Shown: positions 3,352 through 20,996 of the stretch, in pieces
Layout: each line of letters begins with the position of its first letter
How positions within the stretch are numbered: the stretch's first letter is position 1
Source: Escherichia coli
GTDB lineage: Bacteria; Pseudomonadota; Gammaproteobacteria; Enterobacterales; Enterobacteriaceae
Length of the DNA stretch: 64,000 nt
Reading direction: 5' to 3' (one strand)
Assembly: GCA_032372955.1 (NCBI GenBank)
Contig: GCA_032372955.1_4725.1
Translations under genes and position numbers: made by a program
Notes under the pieces: generated by a model
What the model was told of the DNA's origin: nothing
The model's input: the letters and a program-made list of their open reading frames with translations, nothing else
Database searches by the model: none

Positions 3352-4632
3352 TTATTTGTTTTTCTGACTGGAATCGATCAATTCGAGCTTGTGTACTGTC
3401 TGCAACGTCGCATGCGTTTCCAACCAGACCTGGTGAAGATAAGGCGTATCGTTAAGCCGCTTAACGCGCGTATGTTTGTACAACGTATTTTCAAACAACA
3501 TGTTCTTACGAAGTCCCCAGCGCGAGTGAAGTACCCATAACGGTTTTTCATAGGTCTGCACGTAAGCTGGTAACTCGCCGAGATCGGCTCGAATCAGTCC
3601 TTCCGGTTTCTTACCTAAGAAATACTGTCCTGGTACACCACTTCGTGGTAAAGGTTCTTGTGTAACCTGAATCGATGTTGCTTTGATGTACACCCAGAAA
3701 CTGCAAGGATGCGTCACCCACGCTTTCAATGCTTTATCAGACAATAAACGATTGGCAACAATGTCGGACTGTGGGTCTTCTTCGTTCAACAGAATACCAA
3801 GAGATGTTAGATCAAGGTATTTGCGGGAACGGAAGTATCTTTCATAGAGAAACATGTTAATGCAGTTTATTTTCGCTGTCGTGTCGCTAACGATCGTGTA
3901 ACAATCGTCAAGAAGATGTAAATATCCCCCGAACACCAGCGCGACGGTTTCATCTTCGGCGACCTTGCGCGGTAGCCGTAAATACATCTCGTCCTTATAC
4001 GGCAAGAGCTTCGTGGAATCAGCGATCATCTCTTCTGTGATAGCATGGATTTCCAAACTCCCGATACGGCTAAAATCAATCATACCGATATCGTTTTCTT
4101 GGCCACGCTGTGCTGTCTTGAACCCACCTTGGATATAGACACCAACGTCTTTACCGTAAACGTGAGGATGGACATAACCGCCTACGGTGAACAAGCAGTG
4201 TTTGCCGATATTTTCGTAATTCGTATTCGCTTTCGTCAACAGGATATCAGTGCGTTCCGACTCGGGAATCGCGTTGCTTGGATGATAGCCACTATTACCG
4301 ACTTTAGGGAGAAAGCCTACCGTAATAGCGTCATGACAATAAAGCTTGTGGGTTTTAATCGACAGCTCGCCAGGCTGTCCACGAAGGTTAGTATGCGCAT
4401 CCGATTTCGCTTTCAACCACGCATTGAGTGTATCACTGCTGTTTTGAAGCTCGGATTGAAATGTGTACAGATCAATAACTTGTTGCTGGTCAGCATAGCT
4501 TTCATGGACCTGGATCTTGAGTTTTTGATACGTTGAGAACAACGTACTCAGGACACTTTCACCCGCCTCAAGCGCTGTCCAGGCCGTGCCAGAACCCACG
4601 GGTAATCCGTAAGTTTTTACCAATGTATACAT
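3352..4632 (-). CDS. hypothetical protein
   Basis: 426-aa ORF on minus strand; GGAG-type RBS context upstream of start. Confidence 0.5.
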   Translation of the reverse strand: MYTLVKTYGLPVGSGTAWTALEAGESVLSTLFSTYQKLKIQVHESYADQQQVIDLYTFQSELQNSSDTLNAWLKAKSDAHTNLRGQPGELSIKTHKLYCHDAITVGFLPKVGNSGYHPSNAIPESERTDILLTKANTNYENIGKHCLFTVGGYVHPHVYGKDVGVYIQGGFKTAQRGQENDIGMIDFSRIGSLEIHAITEEMIADSTKLLPYKDEMYLRLPRKVAEDETVALVFGGYLHLLDDCYTIVSDTTAKINCINMFLYERYFRSRKYLDLTSLGILLNEEDPQSDIVANRLLSDKALKAWVTHPCSFWVYIKATSIQVTQEPLPRSGVPGQYFLGKKPEGLIRADLGELPAYVQTYEKPLWVLHSRWGLRKNMLFENTLYKHTRVKRLNDTPYLHQVWLETHATLQTVHKLELIDSSQKNK

Positions 4633-4686
4633 GGGAGAGGCCCCCTTATTTTATAGTTACAGTAATATTTTACCGCTGTTAACACA

Positions 4687-4704
4687 GGATACCCCAGGGT
4701 ATCC
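4687..4704. promoter_or_regulatory. perfect palindrome GGATACCC-CA-GGGTATCC in divergent intergenic region; candidate operator
   Basis: 8-nt arms with 2-nt spacer between divergent starts at 4632 and 4737. Confidence 0.3.
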
Positions 4705-4736
4705 CATACTTACTAACAACTTGTAAAGGGCGCATC

Positions 4737-6890
4737 ATGACAGATGAAATTAAACGCCTTCCGTATAACCCGCAGGGGAATTTGGATGGCGCATGGGTTC
4801 CAGAAGAACCCGTCACTGTCCGTCCTTCCACGGGGACCGGATTTAACTTTCTCGTTCCTAAATACGCGCCATATTTTCGTAATGGGTTAAAGATCTACAA
4901 CCCTGAAACAAACGCGTATCTGGAAGAAGGCGTTGACTTTTTATGCACTCACCCCTTCCGTGCCATGGCTGCGCTGACCGGCCTGGAATTATACGGTTCC
5001 ATCATGCTGTTGGACACCGCATTCAGTGGACAGTTGCAACTGAACTACTATTCACTGGGGGGTGAGTTTACACTTGATCAACAACAAATTCTTAACGTTT
5101 TAGCCAACAACCTCTACGACCCCCGCGTTACGTTCTGGGAAAAGGTTGCTGACGTTCCTTCCGTATTCCCGCCAATCAACCACCAACATAATGTCGAAAC
5201 CGACACAATGACGTGGGACGATGTGGTGGCGGCAATCGAATCATTGAAAGAACCGCTTGAAGAAGGGTTCAATAAAGCAATGACCGCATTGCTGCAGCAC
5301 GAGAATCGTCGCGATAACCCCCATGGCGTAACCAAGGCTCAAGTTGGATTGGGGAATGTTCAGAACTTCACAACGGCGACCGAGAGCGATCTGGAAACCA
5401 TCGGTGAAAATCTGTACATGACGTTGGCGATGACGCGTAAGATGATCGCTAACCTGAGTGGTGATAGTGCTGCTGCACACATCAGCAACTACAACAACCC
5501 ACACAAGGTAACTAAAGCCCAGGTGGGACTCGGAAACGTTGAGAACTACGGTACAGCCGATAGTAATGCAACCATTACCGGTACGGCCACAAATCTGTAC
5601 ACAACACCAGCGGGTGTACGTGCGGCAATCAAGGCGATCACGGACGGCTTAAGTACGCGCATCGATCATGTCAACGCTGCGTTAACAACCCATACCGGGG
5701 ATAATAACAACCCTCACGCTGTTACGAAAGCACAGGTAGGACTGGGGGACGTACAGAACTACGGTGTGGCGTCTAATGGGGAAGCCGGTGCAGGTGTTGC
5801 TAACAACAAATACATGACGCCCGCAACCACAGCAGCCGCCATCGCAGCGTTAATCACCCCAACCGTAACCGAACATATCGGTAACACCAACAACCCACAT
5901 GGGGTGACCAAAGCCCAAGTCGGTCTGGGAAGCGTGCAGAACTTTGGGGTTGCTACTACCCAAGAAGCTATCGACGGTCAGGCTAACAACAAGTACATGA
6001 CACCAATACTTGTTCGTTACGCGATCGAGCAAATGGCTGGTCAAGGGTTCAGTAGTCACATCGCAAATACCGAGAACCCGCACCAAGTATCTAAAGCACA
6101 GGTAGGGTTGGGGAGTGTTGAAAACTATCCTGTCGCTTCTGATGTGGAAGCACAAACAGGTGTAGCGACCAACCGCTATATGACACCGGCTGCGACAAAA
6201 GCGGCAATCATCGCTTTAGCGGGTGATGGTTTTGCGGCACACGTTGTCGATAAGAGCAACCCGCATGAAGTAACAAAATCTCAAGTTGGGTTAGGGAACG
6301 TACAGGACTTTGCTGTCGCCACCGACACGCAAGCTGCCGACAAGACTAACCAGACGACGTACATGACACCGTACTCGACTTACAAGTCAATTGCGGCGTT
6401 TGCGGCGTTAGCCGATCATACGCACACAGCCGAACAAGTCGGTGCGCTCCCCATCAATGGGGGTAAGTTAACCGGACCAATCGATCTTTCAGCAACGTCT
6501 ATCACGGGTACCGGACTCGGTATCGATGGTGCTAATGGTTCAATCAACGTCAATAAGTTGACCATCAACCAGCTTCTGGAAGCTTACGGTGGCATTGAAT
6601 CCAGTGATACGATTAAAATCCTGAACGACGATGAGACGCCCGCTAACTTCCTTGCCGATGGCGATCTCGAAGGGATCAAATGGGTTAACATCAACAGCCA
6701 AGAACCTGGAGAGAACCAAGACGGCGAGAAGATGCAGAAGATCGGTAAGCTGAGCGATTACCTTAAGAACGATTATTTAACCAGCTTGAAGACGAACACA
6801 GCGTTCCGTGATGTCTTCCAAGCACTGCTTAGGGAATTCCTTGCTAACTTCAACGCGGTTATCAAAGCAACCGACTTCGAGACGTTATAA
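4737..6890 (+). CDS. tail fibre protein with six tandem NPHxVTKAQVGLGNVxN[YF] repeat units
   Basis: 717-aa ORF; six copies of the repeat; N-terminal region and repeat shared with 10577..12625. Confidence 0.7.
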   Translation: MTDEIKRLPYNPQGNLDGAWVPEEPVTVRPSTGTGFNFLVPKYAPYFRNGLKIYNPETNAYLEEGVDFLCTHPFRAMAALTGLELYGSIMLLDTAFSGQLQLNYYSLGGEFTLDQQQILNVLANNLYDPRVTFWEKVADVPSVFPPINHQHNVETDTMTWDDVVAAIESLKEPLEEGFNKAMTALLQHENRRDNPHGVTKAQVGLGNVQNFTTATESDLETIGENLYMTLAMTRKMIANLSGDSAAAHISNYNNPHKVTKAQVGLGNVENYGTADSNATITGTATNLYTTPAGVRAAIKAITDGLSTRIDHVNAALTTHTGDNNNPHAVTKAQVGLGDVQNYGVASNGEAGAGVANNKYMTPATTAAAIAALITPTVTEHIGNTNNPHGVTKAQVGLGSVQNFGVATTQEAIDGQANNKYMTPILVRYAIEQMAGQGFSSHIANTENPHQVSKAQVGLGSVENYPVASDVEAQTGVATNRYMTPAATKAAIIALAGDGFAAHVVDKSNPHEVTKSQVGLGNVQDFAVATDTQAADKTNQTTYMTPYSTYKSIAAFAALADHTHTAEQVGALPINGGKLTGPIDLSATSITGTGLGIDGANGSINVNKLTINQLLEAYGGIESSDTIKILNDDETPANFLADGDLEGIKWVNINSQEPGENQDGEKMQKIGKLSDYLKNDYLTSLKTNTAFRDVFQALLREFLANFNAVIKATDFETL

Positions 6891-6895
6891 CGGAT

Positions 6896-6930
6896 GGGTG
6901 GGTTCTACCCACCTTTCCTTCTTTTTATTT
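6896..6930 (+). terminator. intrinsic terminator (GGGTGGGT stem, T-rich tail)
   Basis: stem 6896-6913 followed by TTTCCTTCTTTTTATTTTT. Confidence 0.55.
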
Positions 6931-6941
6931 TTCGATAGGAT

Positions 6942-7457
6942 GTGAAAATGGGCACAAAAATGAGTGAATTGGGTGCTCGCATGACGGCATGGTACGCAAG
7001 GAAGGATAACCCTAACCAAGTCACCGCAGCACAAATCGACGCACCCGATAAAAACACGATCGATACGAGAATCGGCAAAAAGCTCCCTAAGGGGATACTC
7101 CCCGTAGCGTATTTCGGTGATTGTACTGATATCCGTAGCGAACGCATCAGCAACGTTACCGCCAGCGGTACGGTAATCTCGTATCCTGAAATACCCGTCA
7201 TGATCGCCGGTACCGACTATATTCTGGCGAAGGGAACGCTAGACATCAAAAAACTTACTTCCGACTGGGCGAACAAAACCGGTTATCTTTTCATTCGTCA
7301 GAAAGACGGATCGATCGATTGGATCTGGCAGAGTAGTGCTGGGGTCGATACGTCAACAGCAATTCGCGTCGGGCAGGTGAGCTGTAACGCAACAGGAATC
7401 ACTTCGGTGGTCTTTAACAAAGTCTTCATCCTCGGCCAAAAACGTTACATGGGGTAA
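6942..7457 (+). CDS. small tail-fibre-associated protein (degenerate NP[NH]xVT N-terminal motif)
   Basis: 171-aa ORF; N-terminus DNPNQVTAAQ resembles the fibre repeat. Confidence 0.4.
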   Translation: MKMGTKMSELGARMTAWYARKDNPNQVTAAQIDAPDKNTIDTRIGKKLPKGILPVAYFGDCTDIRSERISNVTASGTVISYPEIPVMIAGTDYILAKGTLDIKKLTSDWANKTGYLFIRQKDGSIDWIWQSSAGVDTSTAIRVGQVSCNATGITSVVFNKVFILGQKRYMG

Positions 7458-7461
7458 CCGC

Positions 7462-7947
7462 ATGAAGCTATCAACACTGCTTTCTGAATGGGGGACGTAT
7501 CTTACCCAAAAGAACCCTCACGAGGTAACGCCAACACAAACAGATGTCTACGTTAAGACCGAAGTGGCTTCTAAACTTGCACCGCTTGTTACCCAGTGTT
7601 ACCTTCCCTTTCTTTTTTTCAGTCGCGATCGTATCGTACCGTCTGGTTCTTACAACAACGGAAGAATAAGTTTGTCGGAAGGTGTTGCCGAATACAATAC
7701 CAAAGAGGGTGTTGTTCCTGCAACGACGTTGGATGTGTCTGGTGTAAGTGAATCTGTTGGCTGGGTTTATCTTGCTGTCACCGATAGCGGTTTCGCCTAT
7801 ACGTTAACGGATAGCAACAGTAGTTACAAAAACGTGATGCGTATCGGGACATGGAACAAAGTTCAGGGTACCGTGCACCTCGCGGCAACACGTAAGATCG
7901 GCACCGTTGAAATCGACGACGGACAGCTTCCTGACTCGCCTATTTAA
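7462..7947 (+). CDS. small tail-fibre-associated protein, paralog of 6942..7457
   Basis: 161-aa ORF; N-terminus KNPHEVTPTQ; start 5 nt after previous stop. Confidence 0.4.
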   Translation: MKLSTLLSEWGTYLTQKNPHEVTPTQTDVYVKTEVASKLAPLVTQCYLPFLFFSRDRIVPSGSYNNGRISLSEGVAEYNTKEGVVPATTLDVSGVSESVGWVYLAVTDSGFAYTLTDSNSSYKNVMRIGTWNKVQGTVHLAATRKIGTVEIDDGQLPDSPI

Positions 7948-7959
7948 TCGAGGTGAATA

Positions 7960-10563
7960 ATGGCAATGAAAAAGTTCAGCGAACTGGTGAATAGCGTTAC
8001 TACGCGTATCGCCAGTCGCAACAATCCAACAGGACTAAACGCGAGCGATCTCGGTGCCTACAGTACCGCTGAGTTCAACACTGAGATGGAAAAATACATC
8101 GATATTGGCGTAACCGATATCGAACAGGTTGGGGACCAAAGTTATTTTCCTCTGGCAATCGAAGGCTCCGCTGACGGTGCTATCTCCCTAAACGACAGAT
8201 ACCGTCGTTACGGCGTATGTCGTGAATCAGACGGTACTATCGTGTTATTGCGTTCAGCAACGAACAGCGTAAAGAAAGGGGTTTACTACGTTATCTGTAA
8301 AACAGATCAAAACGGGCAAATCACCGAAGTTATCCCAACCAGTCGTCGTTATGAACCCGCGACGCTCGACCGTATTCCTACGGCGATATACTGTCACCAG
8401 AACGGTATCATGTTAGGTCAAGCTGCTTTTGAAGACGGTAGCAGCCCTAAAATGTTTATCGCGTTGACAGACGGAACGTTTGACGCATCCAAACATGTCG
8501 CCATGTATCTTGATGGTAGTCTTGCCAACTTTGTTGATACATCACCGCATATCTGCTGTTGGGAAATTAACGGTAAAATCTACATCGCTATCGCTGGCAC
8601 TAACAGTTATAAACTCTACTTAAATGTTTATACCGTAACTAAATCTTCCATCGGTCCCAGCGGTGGCAGCGTAGCGGCTACGCAGCTTACGAATATTAGC
8701 GGTAGAACGATAGAAGGAACAGCGATAAGCAACAGTGCCGAGATGATTGTCTGCAACCGCATATCTGCGAACGATTTCCCTTCTGACGGGATCGGTCAAA
8801 TCGTCTGGCGCGCTCAGATTCGTCTGCATGCGGCAACCAAAGGCACGAAAGCACGTATTCTGATTGCTTCGTCGTGGTGGACAAACAACCGCAAAAATCA
8901 GCAAAAGAACGGGGTACATCAGTTCTATCTGGATTTTGAAACCACCAACAACAGTTATAGCATGAATCCAGGCGCTGGACAATCCACGTACGTGTCAACC
9001 GATAGCGGAATAGACTGGGTAGGACCTTCCAACACAACGGCGGGGACAAGCGGGTATAACGACGGTTTCTGGCAGTGGGGTTCGGGTAACAGTACGGGAA
9101 ATATTGAAATCGATGAACGTGGTCAAGTCGCTGTGATTCAAAACGACAACTTATCCGCTCCCTACGCACGATCGTACACTATCAGAGGTTTCTCTGGAAA
9201 CGTGTTTGACGAACTTGCCAAACTTGGTCCAACCAGTGGAATACAGCACGACTCAAACTGGAAAAGCGTTGACGATCGTGTCGTTGGTGCACTTGCGTCC
9301 CATGGTTACCTGGGTTTCTTTGCTAAAAACAAGGTTTTCGTTAACTCGCGTACGGCTGGTGGGCAAGGTAATTTCGAAGCCCGTTTGGTGACTTACGATT
9401 GGAACCTTAGCTATCGTTATCGAGGTGAGGGTATAGACGTTTACGGTTTTCCACCTTCCAACAACGTGGTGGTTAGCGCAGGTCAACTATCGCGACCTTT
9501 CCTAACCGTACATTTAAGCGATGACAATACGGTAGTTAGCGGGTCTTATTTAACTGATTCAAACTTATCCGGTAAAATCGGATACGACGCCACCAAACTC
9601 GCACCTTCCGGTGAAGACATCAGTATAACCGCAGCCAACCTGCAAGCGGGCGGACAGCTCGTGTGGAACGCGTATACTGGAACCAAGGTGTCTGGTGTTA
9701 GTCAGTGGCAGCATGCGTTAGCCGTACCTCCAGATGGTACAAACGCACCCTGTATTCTGTTTGTTGCTGGCTGTAATAACAGCACGCGCGTACATGGACG
9801 AATCGCTGCGGAAGTTACCGTATCCGCACGTAAAGGTGCTATTACGGTGACGGGCGTAACCAAACTGCTGGGTTATGTCGAGGAAGCCGATACAACAACT
9901 ATCGGTAGTCAGTATGCTGCCTGGGGTGCATTAGCTTACAAGAAGGTGAGTGATGGATGGCTTGTTGCGGGACATGTTCCGTACTCCCGTCAGTCTGCAG
10001 GGAACCAGAACACCTATCAGTTCCGAGCTGGACGACAAAACGATGGGAACTGGACAACCATCGCATTTGAAGGTATGTATGCTTACCTACAGACAAGCGG
10101 CTGGCGCTGGAACGTGCATCCGGTGTGGGGAATCGGTTATGTTGATACCGCAGTCTCTACGGTGATGGGTAATGGCGGTCAAGTCTTTAGCGCTGTCGGT
10201 AATTCCGTTGCGGAATATAAAGCTCTCGCTGTTAAAAACCGTTACATGGTTTCTACGGTCGTTGCTGCTTCCGGTTACGATATCTACATCAACGAAGACA
10301 TCACTTGCTTGTTTGCCGGTAAAGTCATGACCCTACCTAAAGGCCATTATAACCTAAAAGACTATAATAGCTCACCAGGTAATAAAACATGGTACGTTTC
10401 CGTTGTTCCTAATGGCGACCAGTTAGAACTGGAGTTAACCATCTACAAGCAAGAGGATGATAAAGGACAGCGCGTTAATATCGGAACGATTACGACCAGC
10501 GATACCCAGATCTCTGTCATTAATCTCAATAAGACAACCAAATTAGGTACAGTCACGTTATAA
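7960..10563 (+). CDS. large putative tail fibre / receptor-binding protein
   Basis: 867-aa ORF inside the fibre cluster; GAGGTG RBS; Ser/Thr/Gly/Asn-rich composition typical of fibre proteins. Confidence 0.45.
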   Translation: MAMKKFSELVNSVTTRIASRNNPTGLNASDLGAYSTAEFNTEMEKYIDIGVTDIEQVGDQSYFPLAIEGSADGAISLNDRYRRYGVCRESDGTIVLLRSATNSVKKGVYYVICKTDQNGQITEVIPTSRRYEPATLDRIPTAIYCHQNGIMLGQAAFEDGSSPKMFIALTDGTFDASKHVAMYLDGSLANFVDTSPHICCWEINGKIYIAIAGTNSYKLYLNVYTVTKSSIGPSGGSVAATQLTNISGRTIEGTAISNSAEMIVCNRISANDFPSDGIGQIVWRAQIRLHAATKGTKARILIASSWWTNNRKNQQKNGVHQFYLDFETTNNSYSMNPGAGQSTYVSTDSGIDWVGPSNTTAGTSGYNDGFWQWGSGNSTGNIEIDERGQVAVIQNDNLSAPYARSYTIRGFSGNVFDELAKLGPTSGIQHDSNWKSVDDRVVGALASHGYLGFFAKNKVFVNSRTAGGQGNFEARLVTYDWNLSYRYRGEGIDVYGFPPSNNVVVSAGQLSRPFLTVHLSDDNTVVSGSYLTDSNLSGKIGYDATKLAPSGEDISITAANLQAGGQLVWNAYTGTKVSGVSQWQHALAVPPDGTNAPCILFVAGCNNSTRVHGRIAAEVTVSARKGAITVTGVTKLLGYVEEADTTTIGSQYAAWGALAYKKVSDGWLVAGHVPYSRQSAGNQNTYQFRAGRQNDGNWTTIAFEGMYAYLQTSGWRWNVHPVWGIGYVDTAVSTVMGNGGQVFSAVGNSVAEYKALAVKNRYMVSTVVAASGYDIYINEDITCLFAGKVMTLPKGHYNLKDYNSSPGNKTWYVSVVPNGDQLELELTIYKQEDDKGQRVNIGTITTSDTQISVINLNKTTKLGTVTL

Positions 10564-10576
10564 GGACCTCCAGGTT

Positions 10577-12625
10577 ATGTCGACACCAATTACCCTGAAG
10601 TACCCCGAGGACTGGACCGGTACACTCGCCAGCAACCACATCGTTGGTGAAGAGCATACCGTTCCACGAACCGAGAATAAATGTTACGCCCTTGATGGCG
10701 GACCGTTCTTCACCGAAAGTCTGGTCATCACTGAAAAGCTTACCGGTAAGACACTGGTACGAGGCGTGGATTATAAACCCATTTTCTTGTATCAGGATGC
10801 AACGCTTTACGCAGGTAAAGAAATCTGTGCAGCCATCGCCATCATCAACGATGATATCGAGGGGACATTAGTTAACGACTATTGTATCATCGGTGGTGTT
10901 TACGTAAGTCTTATTGACGCGTTATATCAGGCTATCGAAGAACTCAAACTTGACGATCGTCCGATCAACTGGGACGACATCAAGAACAAACCGGAACTTT
11001 ATCCGCCTGAACCACACATCCACCACGTTAGCGCCATCTACGGTACCGAACATCTTTGCTTAGCGATCTATTCACTGAAAGCCGCAATACTTATCGGTGA
11101 TGCTGCGTCCGATAACCGTCTCTGGGCAGCAATCGATCAGTTACGCAAAGACATGCAAGCAGCGGATAAAGATCTGACCGATCTGCATTACGCTCACGCT
11201 AACCGTACCGATAACCCGCACGAAACCACAAAAGCCCAAGTCGGACTAGGTAACGTACAGAACTATCCTACCGCAAACAAGGCGGAGGCAGAAGCCGGTA
11301 CTGCACCTGACCGATACATGACCGCACAAACGGTTGGTTGGGCGATTGCTAAACTGGCGGGCGATCTAGTCGATGCGCACGCTAACCGTCGGGATAACCC
11401 GCACAGCGTCACCAAAGCGCAGGTTAACCTTGGGAACGTTGATAACTTCCCGACCGCTTCGGATGATGAGGCGAAAGCCGGGACAGCGAACAACCGTTTC
11501 ATGACGCCGCTACGTACCGTTGCCGCGATCGAACAGTTCGCGTTGATTCCACTTAACGCGCATAAAGCCGATTATAACAACCCACACAGGGTAACGAAAG
11601 CCCAGGTGGGATTAGGGAATGTGCAAGACTATCCGATGGCTTCTGAAGAAGAAGCGCGTGCCGGTGTTGCAGCTAACCGATTAATGGCACCGAACACAAC
11701 CAAAGCGTCCATTGAGACCTTTGCGTTAGTTCCGCTTAATGCACACATCGCTGACAAGAATAACCCACACCAAGTGTCTAAAGCACAAGTAGGGTTAGGA
11801 AGTGTTGAGAACTACCCAACCGCTAACCAAGCTGAGGCGCAAGGTGGTTCTGCGACGAACCGTTACATGACGCCACAGTCTACCAACTGGGCAATTCAGA
11901 AATTAGCGGGTGATCTGGTTAACGCTCACGCTAACCGTCGAGACAACCCGCACGCTGTTACGAAAGCGCAGGTAGGGTTAGGGAACGTACAGAACTATGG
12001 TATCGCTTCCGATGCGCATGCGCAGCAAGATGTTAACACCGTGTATTCTACACCACGTAACGCCCGTCTCGCTGCAACGCACATCATCGACACACGCTTG
12101 TTCTGGGGTTCTTACAGCGGAAACAAACTGGTCTTCGTTGATGGTAATGGTGGTACGCGTTTAGGTAAACATGTCATCATCACGGAGAATGGCGGCGGTG
12201 AGATCACACGCTTCTATTGGGGGAACTCTGCGGGCGGTGGTAGTGCGCTATACTTCAACAGCAATATCGATGTTCCTAACGCTTACATTCGCTCGGATGA
12301 GCGTAGTAAACACGACATCCGTTATCTGAAAGACCATCCAGAATCTCTCAGTGAACGTTTACGTGAAATGGCGCGCAATGGGCTTGCCCGCTTCCGTCAC
12401 AACTACGATCCTGATGTCGAGAAGATCGGTGTTATCGCACAGCGTGTTCAAGAACAGTTCCCTGAAATGATCAACGTATCAGATAAAGGACTGTTAAGTC
12501 TTGACACCATGGTGTATAGCGGGGTTCTGTTAGGCGGTTGGTACGAACACGACCAACAGCTTCGTGCTCTGCGTGCAATGGTTGAAGAAATTGCACATCA
12601 CGTGAAAGGAACCAAGGGTATTTAA
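10577..12625 (+). CDS. tail fibre protein with five NPH repeats and C-terminal intramolecular chaperone (peptidase S74-like) domain
   Basis: 682-aa ORF; five repeat copies; C-terminal SDERSK motif about 115 aa from the end. Confidence 0.7.
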   Translation: MSTPITLKYPEDWTGTLASNHIVGEEHTVPRTENKCYALDGGPFFTESLVITEKLTGKTLVRGVDYKPIFLYQDATLYAGKEICAAIAIINDDIEGTLVNDYCIIGGVYVSLIDALYQAIEELKLDDRPINWDDIKNKPELYPPEPHIHHVSAIYGTEHLCLAIYSLKAAILIGDAASDNRLWAAIDQLRKDMQAADKDLTDLHYAHANRTDNPHETTKAQVGLGNVQNYPTANKAEAEAGTAPDRYMTAQTVGWAIAKLAGDLVDAHANRRDNPHSVTKAQVNLGNVDNFPTASDDEAKAGTANNRFMTPLRTVAAIEQFALIPLNAHKADYNNPHRVTKAQVGLGNVQDYPMASEEEARAGVAANRLMAPNTTKASIETFALVPLNAHIADKNNPHQVSKAQVGLGSVENYPTANQAEAQGGSATNRYMTPQSTNWAIQKLAGDLVNAHANRRDNPHAVTKAQVGLGNVQNYGIASDAHAQQDVNTVYSTPRNARLAATHIIDTRLFWGSYSGNKLVFVDGNGGTRLGKHVIITENGGGEITRFYWGNSAGGGSALYFNSNIDVPNAYIRSDERSKHDIRYLKDHPESLSERLREMARNGLARFRHNYDPDVEKIGVIAQRVQEQFPEMINVSDKGLLSLDTMVYSGVLLGGWYEHDQQLRALRAMVEEIAHHVKGTKGI

Positions 12626-12752
12626 TTCAACGTTCTAGAACGCGTTGTAACGCTTCGAAAAGTTTAACCTGGGGTTTGCCTGGATTAAATCGTTTATCGC
12701 GTTCTAGACCCTTCCTTGTTCCTCTAAATCGTTATTCCGACGAGGAGTTCTA

Positions 12753-13388
12753 ATGGCTAAGATTACTGAAAAAGATTTTACCTGCGAATTCATCATTCGC
12801 GACAAAACCGATGTTGAAGGTGGGTATATTGATGACCCGGATGACAGCGGGAAATGTACAAACCACGGCATCACGCAAGCGCTTGCTAATCAATACAAAA
12901 CCACGCTGAAAACGAAATTCGGCTGGAACGGTAACATGCGTAACCTTACCACGGAAATGGCGTTCTTTATCTACAAGACTCATTTCTGGGATAAGATGAA
13001 GCTTGACGAAGTCATGAAACGTTCTGTGTTCTTAGCTGACCGTCTCTTTGACCTGGGTATCAATGCAGGTAAAACGGTTGCGGTTAAGAACCTTCAGCGT
13101 TACCTGAACGTCATGAACAACCGTCAAACTTACTGGAAAGATATCAACGCCGACGGTTTGATGGGACCTGCGACGTTAGGCGTACTCGACGCTTACATCG
13201 CTAAACGCGGAGAAACCGGTAAAGATTATCTCATCGACGCGATGCTAGATATGCAGAGCACTTACTACATCGAATTAGCTGAACGTCGTGAGAAAGACGA
13301 GAAGTTCATTTACGGTTGGCAGGCACGTAAACGTCGTGAGCGTAAGCGTTATGAAGCGATCATCTTGAACGGGTTCAGTGCTGAGTAA
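12753..13388 (+). CDS. endolysin, GH108-type lysozyme domain plus C-terminal peptidoglycan-binding domain
   Basis: N-terminal EGGYIDDPDDSGKCTNHGIT matches the GH108 EGGY catalytic signature; basic C-terminal tail. Confidence 0.8.
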   Translation: MAKITEKDFTCEFIIRDKTDVEGGYIDDPDDSGKCTNHGITQALANQYKTTLKTKFGWNGNMRNLTTEMAFFIYKTHFWDKMKLDEVMKRSVFLADRLFDLGINAGKTVAVKNLQRYLNVMNNRQTYWKDINADGLMGPATLGVLDAYIAKRGETGKDYLIDAMLDMQSTYYIELAERREKDEKFIYGWQARKRRERKRYEAIILNGFSAE

Positions 13389-18089: not shown

Positions 18090-18533
18090 ATGGAAATTAA
18101 ATTCTGTAAATCGATCGCGATTGTACCTGAACAACCTGCGGATGATCTCGAAAAGCTCGATCATCCCACACTGCAACATGCGCTGGAACGTTTAGCCTCT
18201 TTTGCGCCGTTAGAGAATCATCTTCACTGCGTTAATCTTGAAGCATCCGACTTCGACGTGAAGCTTGGGTTCGTGTTTTCACAAACGGGGAAGGATGTGT
18301 TAGAAAACATATTCTGGTCTGCTGAGCATAAGGCGAGAAATGTGATGACGAAGTTAGTTTATAACGTTAGCCTTAGTGAAGACGGCACCTATTGGACGTC
18401 AGAGGCTTGCTGGACGATTTCTGCGATTTCACGAATGGACAAAATACACTATTTGCATCGTGTTGCTGATAGCATTGTACACCAACTGGATCGTTTTGAT
18501 ACCACCCGCTTATCGAATGGAACACAGTGTTAA
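18090..18533 (+). CDS. hypothetical protein
   Basis: 147-aa ORF; AGAGGAA RBS. Confidence 0.5.
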   Translation: MEIKFCKSIAIVPEQPADDLEKLDHPTLQHALERLASFAPLENHLHCVNLEASDFDVKLGFVFSQTGKDVLENIFWSAEHKARNVMTKLVYNVSLSEDGTYWTSEACWTISAISRMDKIHYLHRVADSIVHQLDRFDTTRLSNGTQC

Positions 18534-18548
18534 TACGAGGAATCGAAC

Positions 18549-18977
18549 ATGCAAATTAAATGGCCTGAATCAGCAGTAACTGCAGCGCGCGTTGGTCTTT
18601 ATCATTCGCTGGTTGCTCAGCATACCAGCTTACATCGCACCCTATCACTTTTACGCGAAGACGAAAAACTACGTGAACACATTCAGCCGATCTCAGCATC
18701 AATGAATGCGAACACGTTGTCTATGCGTTGCGTTCGATTGACTTTTGTGTGTACCACGTTAGGAAAGACGTTGCTTGAGGCTGCCTATCTTCGTTGTTGC
18801 GAAAGCACGACGTTCACCGACGATATGGTGTTGTCGATCGAGATGTATTGTCAGACAAATGGAATACGTCAACCGCAGATAGTTTGGAAAATATACGGAT
18901 TGACACCAAAAGTAATCAGCACGAAGTTAGATGCGGTTGCTAATAGCCTTAATGAAATTTTGAAAGAAGGAATTTGA
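18549..18977 (+). CDS. hypothetical protein
   Basis: 142-aa ORF; GAGGAA RBS. Confidence 0.5.
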   Translation: MQIKWPESAVTAARVGLYHSLVAQHTSLHRTLSLLREDEKLREHIQPISASMNANTLSMRCVRLTFVCTTLGKTLLEAAYLRCCESTTFTDDMVLSIEMYCQTNGIRQPQIVWKIYGLTPKVISTKLDAVANSLNEILKEGI

Positions 18978-18978
18978 T

Positions 18979-19341
18979 ATGCAACAACGTATCGGTTTAT
19001 CGCTCGCCATTGACCGACTGATCAAAGTCTCATCGTTACGAAGTGAATTTGTTGGCGTCCGTGAAGAAGCGGCGAATAACCGCTGTATTTTAACGTTTAC
19101 GTGTACCAAGAAAGGCGTGACGGTTATCCGTGATGTTTGGGACGCTGTGAACAAACGTGAACCCCGCTGCTCGGTATCTGTCGTTGATTACAAAAACCTG
19201 GATAATACTTACACTATCCGTTTAGAATGGGAGCATCGCCTCAGGACATTCGTTGAAGTTCGGTCGAAGCTGTTAGCTGAATTGTTGAACGAAGCCTGTT
19301 TACGTGACGAGAACGCTACAGAACTCTTCAGAACGCTTTAA
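18979..19341 (+). CDS. hypothetical protein
   Basis: 120-aa ORF; start 2 nt after previous stop. Confidence 0.45.
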   Translation: MQQRIGLSLAIDRLIKVSSLRSEFVGVREEAANNRCILTFTCTKKGVTVIRDVWDAVNKREPRCSVSVVDYKNLDNTYTIRLEWEHRLRTFVEVRSKLLAELLNEACLRDENATELFRTL

Positions 19342-19399
19342 TTCAATCTTAGATAAGGAAACCCCTTAGAAATTAAAACAAACCGTTATACGTCGTTCT

Positions 19400-19837
19400 G
19401 TGACGTTTAAGCTATACATTGAACTCATGGCAATCGAGGAAAGAAAAATGTTAAATTCAACTTTTACCCACTATCTCCACACCTATGCAAAATTATGCTG
19501 CGTTGACATGGAAGAGCTCGCGAACGATAATACTGTTCGCGATTGTGAGATGCTTCCTAAGCGACAAGGTTTTCTACCCGGTTCGCGGTCAGCGGCGTTC
19601 TTCTTAATCGCTTACTTCATCGTTAGTCATAGTGCGGCGCTGTTGAGCCAAACCAAGAAACAGCGAAAGGATTACGCTACCGCAATCACTCAAGTTTATT
19701 TCGATCGTCTTCACGGACGTGCAGTGAGTATCGATACCGCGTTAACGACCGCGTTTCGTCATCGAGGCGCAACCGCGGTACAGCTACCTGCTTTGGTTAA
19801 GATCGGAAAAGAAATCATCCAGAATGCAACGCGTTAA
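19400..19837 (+). CDS. hypothetical protein (track start is GTG; an in-frame ATG at 19427 is an alternative start)
   Basis: 145-aa ORF. Confidence 0.4.
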   Translation: MTFKLYIELMAIEERKMLNSTFTHYLHTYAKLCCVDMEELANDNTVRDCEMLPKRQGFLPGSRSAAFFLIAYFIVSHSAALLSQTKKQRKDYATAITQVYFDRLHGRAVSIDTALTTAFRHRGATAVQLPALVKIGKEIIQNATR

Positions 19838-19853
19838 TAAATAAACCATAAAC

Positions 19854-19888
19854 CTTCCTTCCCCGGCCTTTACGGCTAGGGAAGGAGG
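19854..19888. terminator. C-rich/G-rich hairpin between convergent genes
   Basis: CCTTCCTTCCC ... GGGAAGGAGG, followed by a T-run at 19902-19909. Confidence 0.4.
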
Positions 19889-19907
19889 TTGTATAGCATT
19901 TCTTTTT

Positions 19908-20996
19908 TTATTGGAACGGGTCTGTACGACCGCTGCCACGATCTACACCACCGTGATCGTGGGTGTATACGTTTGTTCCGGTTGGTGAACGCCAAGAGCC
20001 TGCGATGTGTATGAAGTTCCCATTCAACGTCATCGTGTTCCCGTCTTCACCTGTGAAGCTTACAGCTCCAGTGAATACCGTATTAGGACATTTGAACGTG
20101 GTCTGTCCTGATACTTGCGCGGTGTAGCGATCACACTTCAAAGAAACATTCTGGCTCGTAACGCTTTCTGTTTTACTGGTACGCTCGAAGTTCTCACATT
20201 CGGTATAAATGTTTTTTGCTTTCATTCGGATATCGTTCTTAGCAATTGCTTTGAGCGTATCCTCGCATTGGAATGTGATGTTCTTTTTTGTCACGTCGAT
20301 GATGCTGTCGTCCTGGTTTTGATAACGCAGCATATGCTCGACAAAATGGAGTAACAGCAGATTTTGATGGACGCTGTCCGCAACCTGTAGGTAACCCTCG
20401 TCCAGATTAAGTTCCATGTAGACTTGGGTAACTTCACCAAGCTGTGCGCTGGTGCCGATAACCGCTTTCTTGAGGAAAGTATCAACCATTAGGTAATAGC
20501 AGTCTTCCGTTGAAATCGATTTACGGTCCTTCTTGGCGCTAGGACGTGCGCTGATGGTGAGGATAACCGATTCCATGGTCATCAGCTCGCTATCCCCTCC
20601 TTTGGGCTGCCAGTATAGCTGTTCTTCATCGGCGGTACGCCAGACCACCACACGCTGACCTTTCCTCAAGTTAGGTGCTGTCATCCGGTTACTGCCGAAG
20701 GGTAACCAGTAACACTGTACGCTGGTTGTTGTTGCCGCTTTCGCCGTATAACTGTTCCCTTGAGCGTCTGTTGCACTGACTTCTTTCACGCTTCCCGCCG
20801 CTTCAACTTTCCCGTCAGCACCTGACATCATCTCATCAAGAAAGACCTCCAGCGCCTGGTTAGGATCTTCTTCCAGACTTTTATTGGAAAAGTCGGCAGC
20901 AACAGTACCCAAGGCAAAGATACGGAAAACGCTTACGTTGTTGTCTGGAGCTAGCTGACTCCCTTTTGTGCGATTGTCTGTTGCCAGATCGCTCAT
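19908..20996 (-). CDS. hypothetical protein
   Basis: 362-aa ORF; GGAG-type RBS before start. Confidence 0.5.
   Translation of the reverse strand: MSDLATDNRTKGSQLAPDNNVSVFRIFALGTVAADFSNKSLEEDPNQALEVFLDEMMSGADGKVEAAGSVKEVSATDAQGNSYTAKAATTTSVQCYWLPFGSNRMTAPNLRKGQRVVVWRTADEEQLYWQPKGGDSELMTMESVILTISARPSAKKDRKSISTEDCYYLMVDTFLKKAVIGTSAQLGEVTQVYMELNLDEGYLQVADSVHQNLLLLHFVEHMLRYQNQDDSIIDVTKKNITFQCEDTLKAIAKNDIRMKAKNIYTECENFERTSKTESVTSQNVSLKCDRYTAQVSGQTTFKCPNTVFTGAVSFTGEDGNTMTLNGNFIHIAGSWRSPTGTNVYTHDHGGVDRGSGRTDPFQ

Follow-up and report, generated by a model that had tools for sequence, protein, structure and literature searches.

The second of two tail fibres encoded in the DNA analysed here (fibre 2) ends in a peptidase S74 intramolecular chaperone domain, and the first (fibre 1) carries no such domain. 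We propose that fibre 2 is folded with the help of this domain and then cuts it off, whereas fibre 1 matures without it, and we give this explanation as a whole a probability of about 0.82.

The 64,000-nucleotide stretch of DNA that was analysed, which we call the window, comes from a close relative of Escherichia phage vB_EcoM_Goslar, with ~96% identity between the two. Goslar belongs to the genus Goslarvirus and is a nucleus-forming jumbo phage. Gene order near fibre 2 is the same in both. The fibre 2 gene shares 96.2% nucleotide identity with Goslar positions 18462-20510, and its product differs from the 99%-identical protein Goslar gp025 (YP_009820710) at 6 of 682 residues. PHROG tail and virion structural families match it. 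The features of the locus are collected in Table 1.

Table 1. Positions of the two tail fibres, their parts and neighbouring genes in the window.
Feature	Position (nt)	Strand	Description
Tail fibre 1	4737..6890	+	717 aa; Goslar gp029 orthologue; fibre-2-type N-terminal anchor, six 61-aa repeats, orphan tip (aa 553-717)
Fibre 1 orphan tip	6393..6887		aa 553-717
Inter-fibre protein 1	6942..7457	+	
Inter-fibre protein 2	7462..7947	+	161 aa
Inter-fibre protein 3	7960..10563	+	
Tail fibre 2 precursor	10577..12625	+	Open ORF, 682 aa plus stop; Goslar gp025 orthologue; N-terminal anchor in common with fibre 1, five 61-aa repeats, fibre tip, C-terminal chaperone domain
Predicted mature fibre tip	12059..12292	+	aa 495-572; glycine-rich; ends ...NIDVPNAYIR, directly upstream of the predicted cut
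S-D-E-R-S-K	12293..12310	+	Predicted catalytic Ser573 and general-base Lys578
C-terminal intramolecular chaperone/peptidase S74 domain	12293..12622	+	aa 573-682, 110 aa
RNGLAR insertion	12374..12391		aa 600-605, within the chaperone domain
Endolysin gene	12753..13388	+	GH108 plus PG_binding_3 (Pfam); directly 3′ of fibre 2

The stretch YIRSDERSKHDIRYL (fibre 2 aa 570-584, nt 12284..12328) carries the S-D-x-R-x-K signature, with Ser573 at nt 12293 and Lys578 at nt 12308. A preliminary description made from the sequence alone had placed a domain with this signature in the last ~115 aa, from position 12280, and this placement is correct to within a few residues, as 110 aa extend from Ser573 to the C-terminus. 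The bare S-D-x-R-x-K motif is insignificant when taken alone, and it is the surrounding domain that is significant. The search with a peptidase S74 profile that had been suggested as a check returned a match of Pfam PF13884 (Peptidase_S74) to aa 573-631 of fibre 2, with a score of 25.6 bits (E 1.5e-5) against a curated (gathering) cut-off of 22 bits. The alignment spans profile positions 1-56 of 58. The score lies just above the cut-off because the domain contains a 6-aa insertion and has minority residues at positions that are usually conserved, namely Ser577 for Leu, Pro588 for Leu, Glu597 for Gly and Arg623 for Glu.

With the last 198 aa of fibre 2 as the query, exhaustive HMMER searching identified 104 distant relatives (E <=1e-3), and these were aligned to the C-terminal 115 aa of the protein. 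The residues of the signature are strongly conserved in this alignment: Ser573, Asp574 and Lys578 are each present in 103 of 104 relatives, and Arg576 in 91 of 104. Conservation extends to the domain signature G618-x-I-A621-Q622...P629, which is present in fibre 2 and in which Gly618, Ala621 and Gln622 are each shared by 103 of 104 relatives and Pro629 by all 104. In the 92 relatives with the strict motif, Ser and the C-terminus are a median of 106.5 aa apart, compared with 110 aa in fibre 2. The domain thus occupies the extreme C-terminus of a virion fibre and has the length expected for the family (roughly 100-150 aa). Relative to Goslar, it has accumulated seven synonymous differences and one non-synonymous difference (pN/pS ~0.04, on small counts), and this purifying selection supports the view that the domain is functional. 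The sole amino acid difference, N601S, lies inside the insertion, RNGLAR, which is specific to this lineage; its alignment positions are occupied in only 1-2 of the 104 relatives.

The predicted structure of the domain has a mixed alpha/beta body followed by a long terminal helix (about aa 644-680), the arrangement of the S74 fold, in which the C-terminal helix of solved domains forms a trimeric coiled coil. The top-ranked structural neighbours of this predicted fold are all intramolecular chaperones. Solved members of the same group were also recovered when a sequence profile built from the region and 38 relatives (alignment A1) was searched against the PDB. These are the distal subunit gp37 of the S16 long tail fibre (6f45, E 4.8e-23), the tail fibre 8jov (E 4.8e-21), the MyRF ICA domain (7dc3, E 2.7e-14), the GA-1 neck appendage chaperone (3gud, E 1.4e-7) and the T5 L-shaped fibre (8hqz, E 4.3e-5). 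The identification of an intramolecular chaperone in the preliminary description is therefore borne out by the profile, the catalytic residues, the C-terminal position and the predicted fold. In every respect that can be tested computationally, the fibre 2 domain is an S74 intramolecular chaperone.

The homology extends upstream of the predicted cut. The tip of fibre 2 is homologous to the pre-chaperone tip of S74-bearing fibres such as S16 gp37 (aligned to 6f45_A), and the alignments of many of the 104 relatives start at query positions 25-60. None of the differences from Goslar within its 78 aa is non-synonymous. The monomer model of the tip has a pLDDT below 50, and its fold is of low confidence.

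Fibre 1 resembles fibre 2 (38% identity) only over aa 45-545 of fibre 1, and beyond this point the two proteins are unrelated. Neither Pfam nor NCBIfam has a match to fibre 1, and NCBIfam matches none of the five proteins of the fibre locus. We used an S74-like HMM, built from the 104 relatives and the query itself, to search all six frames of the window, which contain 719 stop-to-stop segments of 40 aa or more. It matches fibre 2 only (E 1e-32; next best E 2.7), in agreement with the earlier statement that fibre 1 lacks the domain. The same asymmetry is retained in relatives. In Salmonella phage SPLA10 and Serratia phage PCH45, the fibre 2 orthologues align with fibre 2 from end to end, match the S74-like HMM (E 8e-29 and 6e-26, respectively) and PF13884 (25.3 and 27.1 bits, respectively), and retain the equivalents of Ser573, Asp574, Arg576 and Lys578. 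Alignment of the fibre 1 orthologues of these phages ends at about aa 552, and they are without an S74 domain.

The fibre 1 tip starts with a HTHTAEQVGALPINGGKLTG motif, and a helix is predicted at its end. No relative of this tip outside Goslar was found by tblastn among 50,697 phage records. Word-indexed searches of a 5.8-billion-protein set returned one near-identical fragment only for the C-terminus of fibre 1, and likewise one for that of fibre 2. The structure prediction for the fibre 1 tip, made from a two-sequence alignment, has a mean pLDDT of 37.8 and is too poor for interpretation. A weak match of the fibre 1 repeats to ribosomal protein L18e in the PDB search (E 0.012) was judged spurious. 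No tail-fibre assembly chaperone of the Tfa, gp57A or T4 gp38 type is recognisable adjoining fibre 1. The two small genes that follow it (inter-fibre proteins 1 and 2) have no Pfam or NCBIfam match, and they look structural rather than chaperone-like, as their Goslar orthologues are found in virions and their products start with half of a fibre repeat.

The mechanism that we propose for fibre 2 is modelled on well-studied proteins. In T5 pb1, the chaperone trimer clasps the fibre tip, and the correctly folded triple beta-structure puts Ser beside a Lys five residues downstream, whereupon the chain is cut (PMC4690869). In both T5 and K1F, Ser departs with the chaperone, and the receptor is bound by the cleaved protein only (PMC4690869). 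By analogy with endosialidase K1F, T5 pb1 and S16 gp37, the chaperone domains of three 682-aa fibre 2 precursors would associate via their helices, and the resulting trimer would nucleate the trimeric beta-structure of the upstream tip (about aa 495-572) and set its register. Once the tip is folded, Lys578 would activate Ser573, and the chain would be cut at Arg572|Ser573, plus or minus one residue. This predicted scissile bond corresponds to the nt 12292/12293 boundary. In the virion, fibre 2 would then be a trimer of chains of about 572 residues that exposes its receptor-facing tip and has shed the 110-aa fragment. The predicted mature protein (aa 1-572) has a mass of about 62.5 kDa, compared with 74.8 kDa for the full-length precursor. 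Fibre 1, with its common anchor and repeats but an unrelated tip without S74, is expected to keep its C-terminus, and its tip would therefore fold without self-cleavage, either unaided or by means of a chaperone acting in trans.

Peptide data from Goslar bear on this proposal. Goslar gp25 and gp29 were detected in purified virions and termed tail fibres, although the fibres could not be resolved (10.64898/2026.04.21.720040). Table S4 of the same preprint gives a coverage of 58.9% (44 peptides) and an estimated 58-136 or so copies per virion for gp25, and a coverage of 51.3% and an estimated 50-118 or so copies for gp29. We compared peptides beginning with A to about D, the portion of Table S4 considered here. 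Six informative peptides derive from aa 573-682 (HNYDPDVEK, IGVIAQR, VQEQFPEMINVSDK, GLLSLDTMVYSGVLLGGWYEHDQQLR, AMVEEIAHHVK and DHPESLSER), and the last two fall within this range. In this portion of the table, neither AMVEEIAHHVK nor DHPESLSER is listed, including their oxidised and missed-cleavage forms, whereas 7 of the 10 gp25 peptides of at least 9 aa from the predicted mature part are present. This difference (0/2 versus 7/10) corresponds to roughly p = 0.15. Within the same portion, the peptide ATDFETL (gp29 aa 711-717), which is the extreme C-terminus of fibre 1, is listed with a low score of 34.97. Cleavage after Arg572 would leave an end that trypsin also produces, so that the new C-terminus of fibre 2 could not be told from that of an ordinary tryptic peptide. 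In this part of the table, the peptide pattern is consistent with, but not decisive for, the loss of the C-terminus by fibre 2 and its retention by fibre 1. The preliminary description suggested different maturation routes for the two fibres, and this is plausible in view of the asymmetry kept in SPLA10 and PCH45 and the agreement of the peptides compared; cleavage itself, like the trimer-dependent folding and the exposure of the tip, is what we infer.

The S74-like domain of fibre 2 might instead no longer cleave, and serve as a permanent C-terminal knob with a role in trimerisation or structure only. The marginal PF13884 score, the several atypical residues and the 6-aa insertion would fit this reading, and gp25 is listed in the preprint at its full-length mass, with processing unmentioned (10.64898/2026.04.21.720040). 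However, Ser573, Asp574, Arg576 and Lys578 are all intact, each is found in 91-103 of the 104 relatives, and the SPLA10 and PCH45 orthologues retain the same four residues. In addition, AMVEEIAHHVK and DHPESLSER are missing from the A to ~D portion of the peptide table, in which most comparable peptides of the mature part are listed. We regard this reading as unlikely. A more radical view, that the match to SDxRxK is a coincidence within some unrelated C-terminal domain, gains some credence from the frequency of the six-residue pattern, which is expected ~0.9 times in a six-frame translation of the window on the basis of shuffles and is seen once. The Pfam match over the curated threshold, conservation that reaches the G-x-I-A-Q...P signature, profile-to-PDB E-values down to 5e-23, and the exclusively intramolecular chaperones among the top structural neighbours refute this view, and its probability is negligible.

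It is also conceivable that fibre 1 self-processes at its C-terminus by means of a different chaperone located in its orphan tip, in which case the two fibres would differ in chaperone family but not in route. The last ~40 residues of fibre 1 are predicted to be helical, and the tip matches no recognisable family, so that it may have an unrecognised function. Against this, ATDFETL from the extreme C-terminus of gp29 is among the virion peptides in the portion of the table compared, and fibre 1 has neither a Ser/Lys signature nor an S74 signal; the model (pLDDT 38) is too poor to inform the choice. Self-processing of fibre 1 therefore seems very improbable, and we favour self-cleavage by the S74 chaperone of fibre 2 alone.

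In RefSeq, Goslar gp025 is already annotated with the words 'conserved domain Peptidase_S74 pfam13884', and there is no substantive difference between gp025 and fibre 2. The S74 domain of fibre 2 is thus already known from public annotation of a 99%-identical protein, and it is an ordinary case of a widespread module. The domain and its cleavage are undiscussed in the text of the 2019 Goslar genome paper and of the 2026 preprint, and neither S74 nor a chaperone appears in the text of the latter (10.64898/2026.04.21.720040).

Among solved structures, the best sequence relative of fibre 2 is gp37 of Salmonella phage S16 (6f45), a T-even fibre of the T2/S16 type. The alignment takes in the glycine-rich tip that precedes the cut as well as the complete chaperone domain, in which gp37 has SDRRIK and GLIAQEV...P. 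Like fibre 2, gp37 is a myovirus fibre with a C-terminal chaperone after the fibre tip. The remainder of fibre 2, composed of a chimallivirus anchor domain and 61-aa NPH...VGLGNV repeats, is unrelated to gp37. In T2-type phages such as Matisse, a gene for a gp38-like adhesin lies directly 3′ of the fibre gene, whereas the window has a GH108 endolysin gene in this place. Membership of a T2/S16-type gp37-gp38 system was rejected, as the neighbouring proteins have no gp38 family match in Pfam, PHROGs or NCBIfam.

T5 pb1 (4uw8, 8hqz) has the same i/i+5 spacing of its catalytic residues, with Ser1264/Lys1269 corresponding to Ser573/Lys578 (PMC4690869). Its chaperone is longer (133 aa, compared with 110 aa in fibre 2) and bears long beta-hairpin tentacles, and the mature tips are unrelated. 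From a reading of the sequence, the T5 sensor arginine, located 14 residues before Ser, has no obvious fibre 2 counterpart. Endosialidase K1F (3gw6) and the GA-1 neck appendage (3gud), which also belong to PF13884/MEROPS S74, are tailspikes or appendages with enzymatic beta-helix or beta-propeller bodies, unlike the repeat-built fibre of a nucleus-forming jumbo phage described here. The MyRF ICA domain (7dc3) belongs to a eukaryotic membrane-bound transcription factor, which it sets free; it does not mature a virion fibre.

Beyond correct annotation, the fibre 2 domain itself is of little importance. The predicted mature mass and C-terminus could be useful in fitting unmodelled density of the peripheral baseplate or tail fibres in Goslar or PhiKZ-like phages. 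The predicted cut also matters if fibre 2 is to be expressed as a reagent that binds receptor: on the analogy of T5 pb1, a construct needs the chaperone domain in order to fold, and binding is to be expected of the cleaved product alone. One S74 fibre is consistently paired with one fibre whose orphan tip evolves fast, which suggests that receptor binding is divided between a conserved and a variable fibre, a pattern that is common among phages.

The repeats of the two fibres follow a 61-aa pattern, HxxxxxNPHxVTKAQVGLGNVxNY...YMTP, and occur six times in fibre 1 and five times in fibre 2. No Pfam or NCBIfam model matches them, and the only matching PHROG families are mostly of unknown function. 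The three inter-fibre proteins (171, 161 and 867 aa) have at their start a helix and then (K/R)(D/N)NP(H/N/T)xVTxxQ, which is the first half of the fibre repeat without its VGLGNVxNY half. Their counterparts in SPLA10 and PCH45 (L005 6150..12564 and L006 8579..11731) start with the same half-repeat, and proteins of PHROG 3573 have a fibre N-terminal part fused to a body like that of the 867-aa protein. In Goslar virions, the copy numbers of gp26, gp27 and gp28 are estimated at about 9-22 each (Table S4; 10.64898/2026.04.21.720040), compared with 50-136 for the fibres.

The half-repeat motif may be a docking adaptor. Considering this motif, the virion copy numbers (about one sixth of those of the fibres) and the S16-like tip, we have entertained the idea that removal of the chaperone domain exposes the conserved fibre 2 tip as a docking site for at least one of the three inter-fibre proteins. 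This idea is speculative and in our estimation improbable. If it were true, the receptor-binding apparatus of chimalliviruses would be branched and exchangeable, with its assembly gated by self-cleavage, in the manner of S16 gp38 capping matured gp37.

Divergence between the window and Goslar (L001) is strongly mosaic across positions 3352..13388. The gene for the 161-aa inter-fibre protein has only 80.7% DNA identity to Goslar, and the fibre 1 repeats have a pS of 0.445 against 0.033 for the fibre 1 anchor, while fibre 2 is 96.2% identical with a pN/pS of 0.03. This pattern of sequence differences suggests recombination or exchange inside the fibre locus.

Goslar gp24, the orthologue of the endolysin encoded next to fibre 2, has an estimated 51-120 copies in the virion mass-spectrometry table, a number similar to those of the fibres. 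Its presence there indicates that the endolysin may be virion-associated, instead of or besides having a role in late lysis. Finally, NCBI lists two protein fragments (P0001 and P0105) that match the two fibre C-termini at 99% and 95% identity. They come from contigs of <1 kb and are recorded as partial Salmonella enterica and Escherichia coli proteins; their most likely origin is reads from a Goslar-like phage in bacterial assemblies.
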